DNA of 1,104 bases from Naegleria gruberi. Lineage: Eukaryota. Position numbers and translations under genes: made by a program. The DNA is taken from NCBI GenBank assembly GCA_000004985.1, contig GG739560.1. One strand, 5' to 3'. This document shows positions 3 to 1,104 of this stretch, in pieces (position 1 is the stretch's first letter; each line of letters starts with the position of its first letter). The notes below the pieces were generated by a model. It was given only the letters and a program-made list of their open reading frames with translations. It did not search any database and was not told the origin of the DNA.

Positions 3-224
3 GAACTACAAATTAATCAACAAACAATTCAACCAAAGGAAAAAGAAAATACAGAAAATACTACCGTCATTACTAATTCTGTGGAAAAGAAAAATTATGA
101 TTGTGTAAATTGTGGCAAACCTAACTCTAAAAAGAAGTGTGGAGCATGTCAAGCAGTTGTTTATTGCTCTAAAGAATGCCAAAGCAAGCATTGGAAGGTG
201 CATAAATTAACATGCAATAAGTAA
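3..224 (+). CDS. 3' terminal part of a gene encoding a MYND-type zinc-finger protein (5'-partial; stop codon TAA at 222-224). Translation: ELQINQQTIQPKEKENTENTTVITNSVEKKNYDCVNCGKPNSKKKCGACQAVVYCSKECQSKHWKVHKLTCNK*
   Basis: The frame is open from the window edge (pos 3) with no in-frame stop until 222-224. The Cys/His spacing C(102)-x2-C(111)-x8-C(138)-x2-C(147)-x5-C(165)-x3-C(177)-x7-H(201)-x3-C(213) matches the MYND consensus. CVNCG...C..C....YCS..CQ.K.W..H...C closely resembles the DEAF1/ETO/BS69 MYND fingers. Third codon positions are A/T-biased (caa, gaa, aat), consistent with the genome composition. The provided ORF track omitted it only because it lacks an in-window ATG. Confidence 0.85.
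   Translation, partial: ELQINQQTIQPKEKENTENTTVITNSVEKKNYDCVNCGKPNSKKKCGACQAVVYCSKECQSKHWKVHKLTCNK
102..215 (+). other. MYND zinc-finger domain (8 zinc ligands: Cys codons 102,111,138,147,165,177,213 and His 201; additional conserved H-W at 189-194)
   Basis: Direct translation: CVNCGKPNSKKKCGACQAVVYCSKECQSKHWKVHKLTC. The canonical MYND spacing and the conserved C-Q-x-K-[DH]-W-x-x-H-x-x-x-C tail are both present. Confidence 0.85.
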
Positions 225-753: not shown

Positions 754-851
754 TTACCATTACTTACTTTTATTAATACTTTTATTGGTGGTGTGATTCA
801 TTTACCTTAATGATATGATGTTATTAATGATACTATGTTGATGAAATTCAC

Positions 852-863
852 TCATCATGATGA
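852..863. promoter_or_regulatory. Perfect 12-bp palindrome TCATCATGATGA (two inverted TGATGA half-sites, no spacer)
   Basis: The sequence equals its own reverse complement. It sits in a cluster of TGATGA motifs. Palindromic hexamer pairs are typical dimeric transcription-factor sites. Confidence 0.3.
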
Positions 864-956
864 AAATATAGGGTGAATGATGATTTTACCTTGCAGACTA
901 CAATACTTTTGATTGAAAGTTTTCCAAATTACCATATGAATCTGGCAGTAATGATG

Positions 957-988
957 ATTTTAGTGAAAATATTAAATTTCACTAAAAT
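957..988. repeat. Hairpin / inverted repeat: perfect 12-bp stem (ATTTAGTGAAAA / TTTTCACTAAAT) with 8-nt loop ATATTAAA
   Basis: 957-968 pair base-for-base with 988-977. The left arm begins at the last base of the TGATGA at 952-957. Confidence 0.55.
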
Positions 989-1104
989 ATTACTATTATC
1001 AGATTTAAAAATTACTATTAATGATGATAAATAACAATGATGATGGTTGGTAGTTGTTCCGATGATGATGTACCAACTTGAATTTTTCCAAATAATAAAA
1101 TTAT

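Follow-up and report, generated by a model that had tools for sequence, protein, structure and literature searches.

Cryptically simple sequences and proto-microsatellites were reportedly described by Tautz, Trick and Dover in 1986, and the SIMPLE algorithm used on such sequences is said to be that of Hancock and Armstrong. In sequence of this kind short motifs are locally over-represented in AT-rich non-coding DNA in a scrambled, non-tandem arrangement, and the same was found for the hexamer TGATGA in the 3′ part of the 1,104-nt stretch of DNA analyzed here (the window), where the motif is a trinucleotide repeat of 2–3 units and lies alongside other small duplications. The locus differs from the described class in that one hexamer is strongly dominant, on one strand, and in that its tracts are very short (6–10 nt) and up to 70 nt apart. 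Degenerate (ATG)n micro- or minisatellites are comparable in that the word consists of two TGA units, period-3 arrays are called at permissive settings and a 17-bp tandem is present (Table 1), whereas the period-3 arrays of this locus fall below the standard thresholds of Tandem Repeats Finder (TRF), with 57–65% matches and 12–19% indels, and its copies are out of register.

Clusters of C/EBP-ATF sites or of homeodomain TAATGA sites presumably also hold several copies of one short word within ~250 bp, as this locus does; the difference from homotypic transcription-factor clusters is that no fixed spacing or phasing is found here. The contexts TGATGAAAT (copy at 839) and TGATGAAAA (copy at 858) are similar to what we take to be the C/EBP-ATF composite element (CARE), TGATGNAAN, and both copies fit TGATGAAAN, whereas most copies read TGATGAT(T/A/G), a misfit to the 3′ half of CARE. 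The word TTAATGAT, found three times (807, 824, and 1018), presumably resembles homeodomain/POU sites, and a resemblance to Pbx-Hox sites is likewise assumed. The sequence AATGATGATTGAT is present in a Hox-TALE EMSA probe (PMC3957477); as the TGATTTTA of the window does not fit TGATNNAT, this probe is related, not identical. Literature on TGATGA and AATGATGAT was found to consist mostly of primers and unrelated motifs. Box C/D snoRNA clusters share with the locus the RUGAUGA words on one strand, some of them ~70–74 nt apart, and a position in what could be transcribed non-coding sequence; they differ in that the locus is without a CUGA D box, convincing terminal stems or a near-threshold Rfam model. 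The TGATGA cluster is an already known kind of sequence feature, and its most probable identity (roughly 55%) is that of cryptically simple non-coding DNA which arose by slippage and duplication and has no motif-specific function.

The window begins within an ORF that encodes the final 73 residues of its protein, with a C-terminal zinc finger at residues 34–71 which was matched to Pfam PF01753 (zf-MYND) at an E-value of 2.5e-12 and a score of 47.1 bits (cut-off, 22.7). When 1.84 billion representatives were scanned in full with HMMER, 3779 proteins were returned, all of them domain-level matches (~50% identity over ~45 aa) with no close relative of the ORF among them. In several of these the finger lies at the extreme C-terminus with the same end residue (e.g., 2196–2244 of the 2244 residues of P0017), and since these relatives stop where the ORF stops, its TAA is the true stop codon and all sequence beyond it is 3′ flank or 3′UTR. 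The MYND gene is of eukaryotic type and may have a giant-virus-like origin. The top matches are proteins with 6–13 tandem MYND fingers (ENA assemblies), and one match was identified by cluster look-up as a sponge protein. A word-indexed protein search with the 73-aa fragment gave no candidate, and exact-protein look-ups of four ORFs of the window gave no match. A genetic code with TGA as the only stop, under which the ORF would extend to position 533, was rejected, as a scarcity of TGA is common to all three plus frames of 1–674, the extension is not protein-like and the homologues end at the TAA. TGA triplets are unevenly distributed on the plus strand, with 5 in 1–674 against 30 in 675–1104 (the complementary TCA numbers 15 and 9); the plus frames are TGA-poor across 1–674 and in the 5′ part all three are without TGA for 130–237 codons.

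The 880 nt beyond the stop codon are AT-rich (19–33% GC) apart from a block of 45–49% GC at ~343–607. They contain no ORF above 65 aa and no tRNA or Rfam family at or near threshold, and a tRNA reading of the window as a whole found none. The TGATGA cluster lies 615–845 nt 3′ of the stop codon, followed by the only plus-strand AATAAA of this region, which is possibly a poly(A) signal and in that role would place the whole cluster within the 3′UTR. A poly(A) signal at this position would imply a 3′UTR of ~880 nt; on the minus strand the same hexamer (TTTATT) occurs at 160, 769, and 781.

Table 1. Positions of the features of the window discussed in the text.
Feature	Position	Strand	Remarks
MYND-finger ORF, 3′ end	3–224	+	Translation and Pfam; stop TAA 222–224
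17-bp tandem TTAATGATAYGATGTTA, 1.9 copies	807–839	+	TRF score 52, 87% matches
TGATGA copy 1, context TTGATGAAAT	839–844	+	
12-bp perfect palindrome TCATCATGATGA	852–863		Minus-strand copy 852–857 and copy 2 (858–863)
13-mer AATGATGATTTTA, first copy	876–888	+	Holds TGATGA copy 3 (878–883); blastn-short E 0.015
Imperfect 71-nt inverted repeat (hairpin), 31 bp	937–1007	+	Perfect 12-bp core 957–968/977–988
13-mer AATGATGATTTTA, second copy	950–962	+	Holds TGATGA copy 4 (952–957)
Tandem AAATATTACTATTA x2, 22–23 bp, low-grade	983–1031	+	Permissive TRF score 66, 78% matches
AATGATGATG, (ATG)3 tract	1036–1045	+	Holds TGATGA copy 6 (1038–1043)
GATGATGATG, (GAT)3.3 tract	1061–1070	+	Holds TGATGA copy 7 (1063–1068)
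AATAAA	1094–1099	+	Sole plus-strand copy 3′ of the MYND stop

On the plus strand TGATGA starts at 839, 858, 878, 952, 1022, 1038, and 1063 (n = 7), and a single minus-strand copy lies at 852–857, giving seven of eight copies in one orientation; no further copy occurs in the remaining ~870 nt. The seven exact copies between 839 and 1068 that were listed in the preliminary description are all in place, as is the 13-mer AATGATGATTTTA repeated 74 bp apart. The density of the hexamer is beyond chance and is the sole claimed feature that is clearly so. Dinucleotide shuffles of the whole window, counted on both strands, gave a mean of 1.36 copies and a maximum of 5, with eight reached in 0/200; shuffles of the AT-rich half (625–1104) also had a maximum of 5, with seven reached in 0/500. 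When corrected for any hexamer, at least eight copies in 230 nt were seen in 12/500 whole-window and 1/500 local shuffles. The first-order Markov expectation is 0.8–1.4 copies, and the ~0.2 expected copies first given were therefore too low. In 292 kb from unrelated MYND-bearing metagenomic contigs the densest cluster was 5 in 230 nt (contig L061), which proved to be a contiguous poly-Asp coding tract, and no dispersed non-coding TGATGA cluster was found in these fetched MYND loci; judged against this rough background, a dispersed non-coding cluster of seven is not commonplace.

The secondary features do not withstand the statistics. The 12-bp perfect palindrome stands, but it is at chance level, since 37% of the shuffled whole windows and 23% of the locally shuffled sequences contain one, and an exact direct repeat of at least 13 nt is marginal (~4% of whole-window and 2.4% of local shuffles). 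The spacings from copy to copy (19, 20, 74, 70, 16, and 25 nt) are irregular; the 19–20 bp phasing proposed earlier holds for the copies at 839, 858, and 878, but no helical phasing was found over all seven (periods of 10–11 bp, Rayleigh p 0.07–0.9, uncorrected). A common triplet register is also absent, with R = 0.14 for period 3 and starts modulo 3 of 2, 0, 2, 1, 2, 0, and 1, which excludes the decay of one microsatellite by substitution only. The plus-strand copies occupy all three frames, in every frame a stop is only a few codons away from each copy, and no ORF of the cluster region is longer than 57 codons. Coding in any frame was rejected on the grounds of the mixed frames and nearby stops, and the cluster region is therefore non-coding.

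The flanks of the hexamer extend the ATG repeat in register: six of the seven copies have A at −1 and five have T at +1, and the real unit is (A)ATGATGA(T), i.e., 2–3 units of (ATG)n. ATGATGA occurs six times and AATGATGAT four times, and the longest tracts are ATGATGATG (1037–1045) and GATGATGATG. Several small duplications that are unrelated to TGATGA were found within the same 300 nt, the low-grade ones having periods of 13, 17, 18–19, and 22 bp. The motif-rich zone is bounded on its 5′ side by the 17-bp tandem, within which degenerate TAATGAT words start at 808 and 825; further downstream an 18–19-bp unit is duplicated at 957–992, and AAATATTACTATTA is found at 985 and 1007 in a duplication which extends into TGATGA copy 5 (1022–1027). 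Shorter words recur at 822/1016 (TATTAATGAT), 949/1019 (TAATGATGAT), 861/964 (TGAAAATAT), 917/1081 (AAGTTTTCCAAAT), and 912 and 1077 (TTGAA.GTTTTCCAAAT).

A SIMPLE-like measure of tetranucleotide recurrence peaks at 841–1070, with 0.93 against 0.62 ± 0.11 in the best 230-nt window of the shuffles, and cryptic simplicity, taken as a local excess of short motifs over shuffles with no regular tandem, was found at 841–1070. At standard scores (≥50) only the 17-bp array passes TRF, and no period-3 call over the TGATGA cluster reaches a score of at least 30; at very permissive settings degenerate period-3 ATG arrays are reported at 810–884 and 1021–1070 (with scores of 25–31). The suggestion of a decayed (ATG)n/(TGA)n repeat is partly supported, by the flanks and the permissive arrays, but not by the standard TRF result or by any common phase. 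The silence of standard TRF, the lack of phase and the unrelated sequence between tracts together indicate scrambled cryptic simplicity and not one decayed array.

We infer the following origin. Proto-microsatellite seeds of the (ATG)n type, in most cases (A)ATGATGA(T) with 2–3.3 units, would have arisen in the AT-rich 3′ flank or possible 3′UTR, and replication slippage, together with local duplications of small size, may then have dispersed and multiplied these seeds and neighboring words. The hexamer excess would then be due to the duplication of the same few words in direct orientation and not to recognition by a factor, and the palindrome and the 19–20 bp spacings would be incidental. The shared orientation of seven of the eight copies is expected under direct duplication and is counted for this origin; the ATG-register flanks, the co-located duplications, the recurrence peak, and the permissive TRF arrays count for cryptic simplicity, as do the non-coding and unphased state of the cluster, its lack of constant geometry and the lack of a shared RNA structure. 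Counted against it are the silence of standard TRF, the poor quality of the period-3 calls, the missing triplet register and the rarity of such clusters in the 292 kb, and also the length of the tracts, since 6–10 nt is shorter than usual for efficient slippage. The cluster is probably functionless, which is an argument from absence.

A cluster of cis-regulatory sites, whether read in DNA or in RNA, is unlikely. More narrowly, it is rather unlikely that the (A)AUGAUGA(U) words and the 937–1007 hairpin form a cis-regulatory module in the distal 3′UTR of the MYND gene, or an equivalent homotypic DNA enhancer; in the 3′UTR, where it would lie just ahead of the putative poly(A) signal, such a module may offer multiple sites to an RNA-binding protein or to a kink-turn/snoRNP-type protein that binds C-box-only motifs. 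On the DNA side the copies would be a homotypic binding-site cluster, in an enhancer or promoter, for a factor reading (A)ATGATGA(T) or TAATGAT, which would control either the MYND gene or one lying outside the window. The copies are significantly enriched in a strand-specific way and all eight fall inside 230 nt, as such a cluster would have it, but there is neither helical phasing nor fixed spacing, the flanks merely extend the ATG repeat, and the window ends at 1104 ahead of any downstream gene, so that this explanation is doubtful. The more specific proposal of an array for a dimeric factor is unsupported, since its bases, the palindrome and the phasing, are both at chance, only one pair of copies is inverted and the spacings are irregular.

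It is similarly improbable that the segment belongs to a dispersed repeat (a foldback element, MITE, other transposon fragment or satellite relic) with the motif lying in inherited subrepeats. Inverted repeats abound in the non-coding part of the window (327–342/608–623 around the GC-rich block, 630–648/694–712, and 937–968/977–1008), which suggests mobile-element content nearby, and short direct repeats are numerous. Against this, 800–1100 is not bounded by terminal inverted repeats or a target-site duplication, and no related copy was found among the 70 fetched loci (one viral and 69 metagenomic), whose likeness to the window is confined to the MYND finger. Exact-word scans with 30–32-mers of viral, metagenome, and prokaryotic genome collections were empty, and of two viral contigs that match the paired 13-mer pattern, one does so in coding sequence and the other in a tandem repeat of another kind, neither of them related. 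A blastn search of the window against phages also gave no match.

The GC-richer block at ~343–607 has more C than G on the plus strand and lies between two 16-nt inverted arms (327–342, ATAATATGCTATGAAA; 608–623, TTTTATAGCATATTAT) that are complementary at 15/16 positions. A 22-nt direct repeat lies near its ends (354–375 and 557–578, 73% identity), and no long ORF, Rfam match or tRNA was found within it. It folds better on the minus strand (−85.2 against −69.3 kcal/mol) and looks like a MITE/SINE-like insertion or a minus-strand ncRNA.

An element acting at the RNA level, in which UGAUGA/AAUGAUGAU motifs and the 937–1007 hairpin would work in the MYND 3′UTR or in a non-coding transcript, is decidedly improbable; in its variants an RNA-binding protein would recognize the motifs, or the hairpin would be a small-RNA precursor. 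All seven plus-strand copies are in sense orientation to the upstream MYND gene, and the only AATAAA after the stop lies just beyond the cluster. The hairpin is unusually stable, at −23.6 kcal/mol (z −6.3) on the plus strand and −19.7 kcal/mol (z −4.7) on the minus strand, and every one of the five non-Watson-Crick pairs in it is G.U on the plus strand. The segment 800–1104 folds at −59.3 kcal/mol on the plus strand against −50.4 kcal/mol on the minus strand, but a local excess of G over C explains this advantage. No structural context is shared by the copies, which lie in a 5′ or a 3′ arm, in a loop or in unpaired sequence, and no Rfam family comes close to threshold. The second AATGATGATTTTA lies within the 5′ arm of the 937–1007 hairpin, and GATGATGATG within the 3′ arm of a weaker one at 1045–1078 that is not significant (z −1.6).

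The 937–1007 hairpin is pre-miRNA-like in size and matches no Rfam family, and a miRNA reading was rejected with the Rfam miRNA models far below threshold. A SECIS element at this position was also rejected: the hairpin does have AUGA (954–957), a helix of 11 bp and a loop rich in A, but the 3′ strand reads UAUUAC without GA, and Rfam SECIS_1 scores 14.6 against 35. A hammerhead (CUGAUGA) was dismissed because none of the copies is preceded by C. A second plus-strand hairpin is predicted at 629–713, with arms ACAACAACTCCGAATAACA/TGTTGTGTTGAGTTGTTGT and −25.8 kcal/mol (z −3.6), compared with −18.8 kcal/mol on the minus strand.

Very improbable is a relic of a former exon, rich in Asn/Asp or in Ser/His, whose GAT GAT or TCA TCA codons would be left as TGATGA: the GAT-GAT frame does read NDDF, NDDF, NDDK, NDDG, and DDDV, and the only comparable control cluster is the coding poly-Asp tract, but the copies stand in all three frames, each with nearby stops, and the sequence between them is not protein-like. 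Least credible of all is the TGATGA hexamer as the C box of clustered box C/D snoRNA genes or snoRNA-like RNPs, for although six RTGATGA words lie on the plus strand (857, 877, 951, 1021, 1037, and 1062), some of them 70–74 nt apart, and ~20 Rfam C/D families match weakly, no CTGA D box occurs on the plus strand at 537–1104, so that the first four candidates are certainly without one (for the copies at 1022, 1038, and 1063, which only 36–83 nt follow, this is a partial test, as a D box could lie past 1104), terminal stems of 4–6 bp form only with relaxed NTGA boxes and G.U pairs at the chance level of AT-rich sequence, the GA partner for the sheared pairs of a kink-turn is missing, and the best Rfam score is 19.7 bits for snoU18 against a gathering threshold of 47 (other C/D families, 8–18 bits against 35–85), with the guide region mismatched in the U18 alignment. 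The rejection of a snoRNA cluster in the preliminary description, for want of D boxes and terminal stems, was therefore sound.

It follows for the reading of such loci that a hexamer cluster which is highly significant against shuffles can result where non-coding, AT-rich DNA undergoes slippage and duplication of an ordinary kind, and that TGATGA by itself is no evidence for snoRNAs. If the copies were conserved or occupied, they would constitute a multi-copy (A)ATGATGA(T) cis-element beside a MYND-finger gene.
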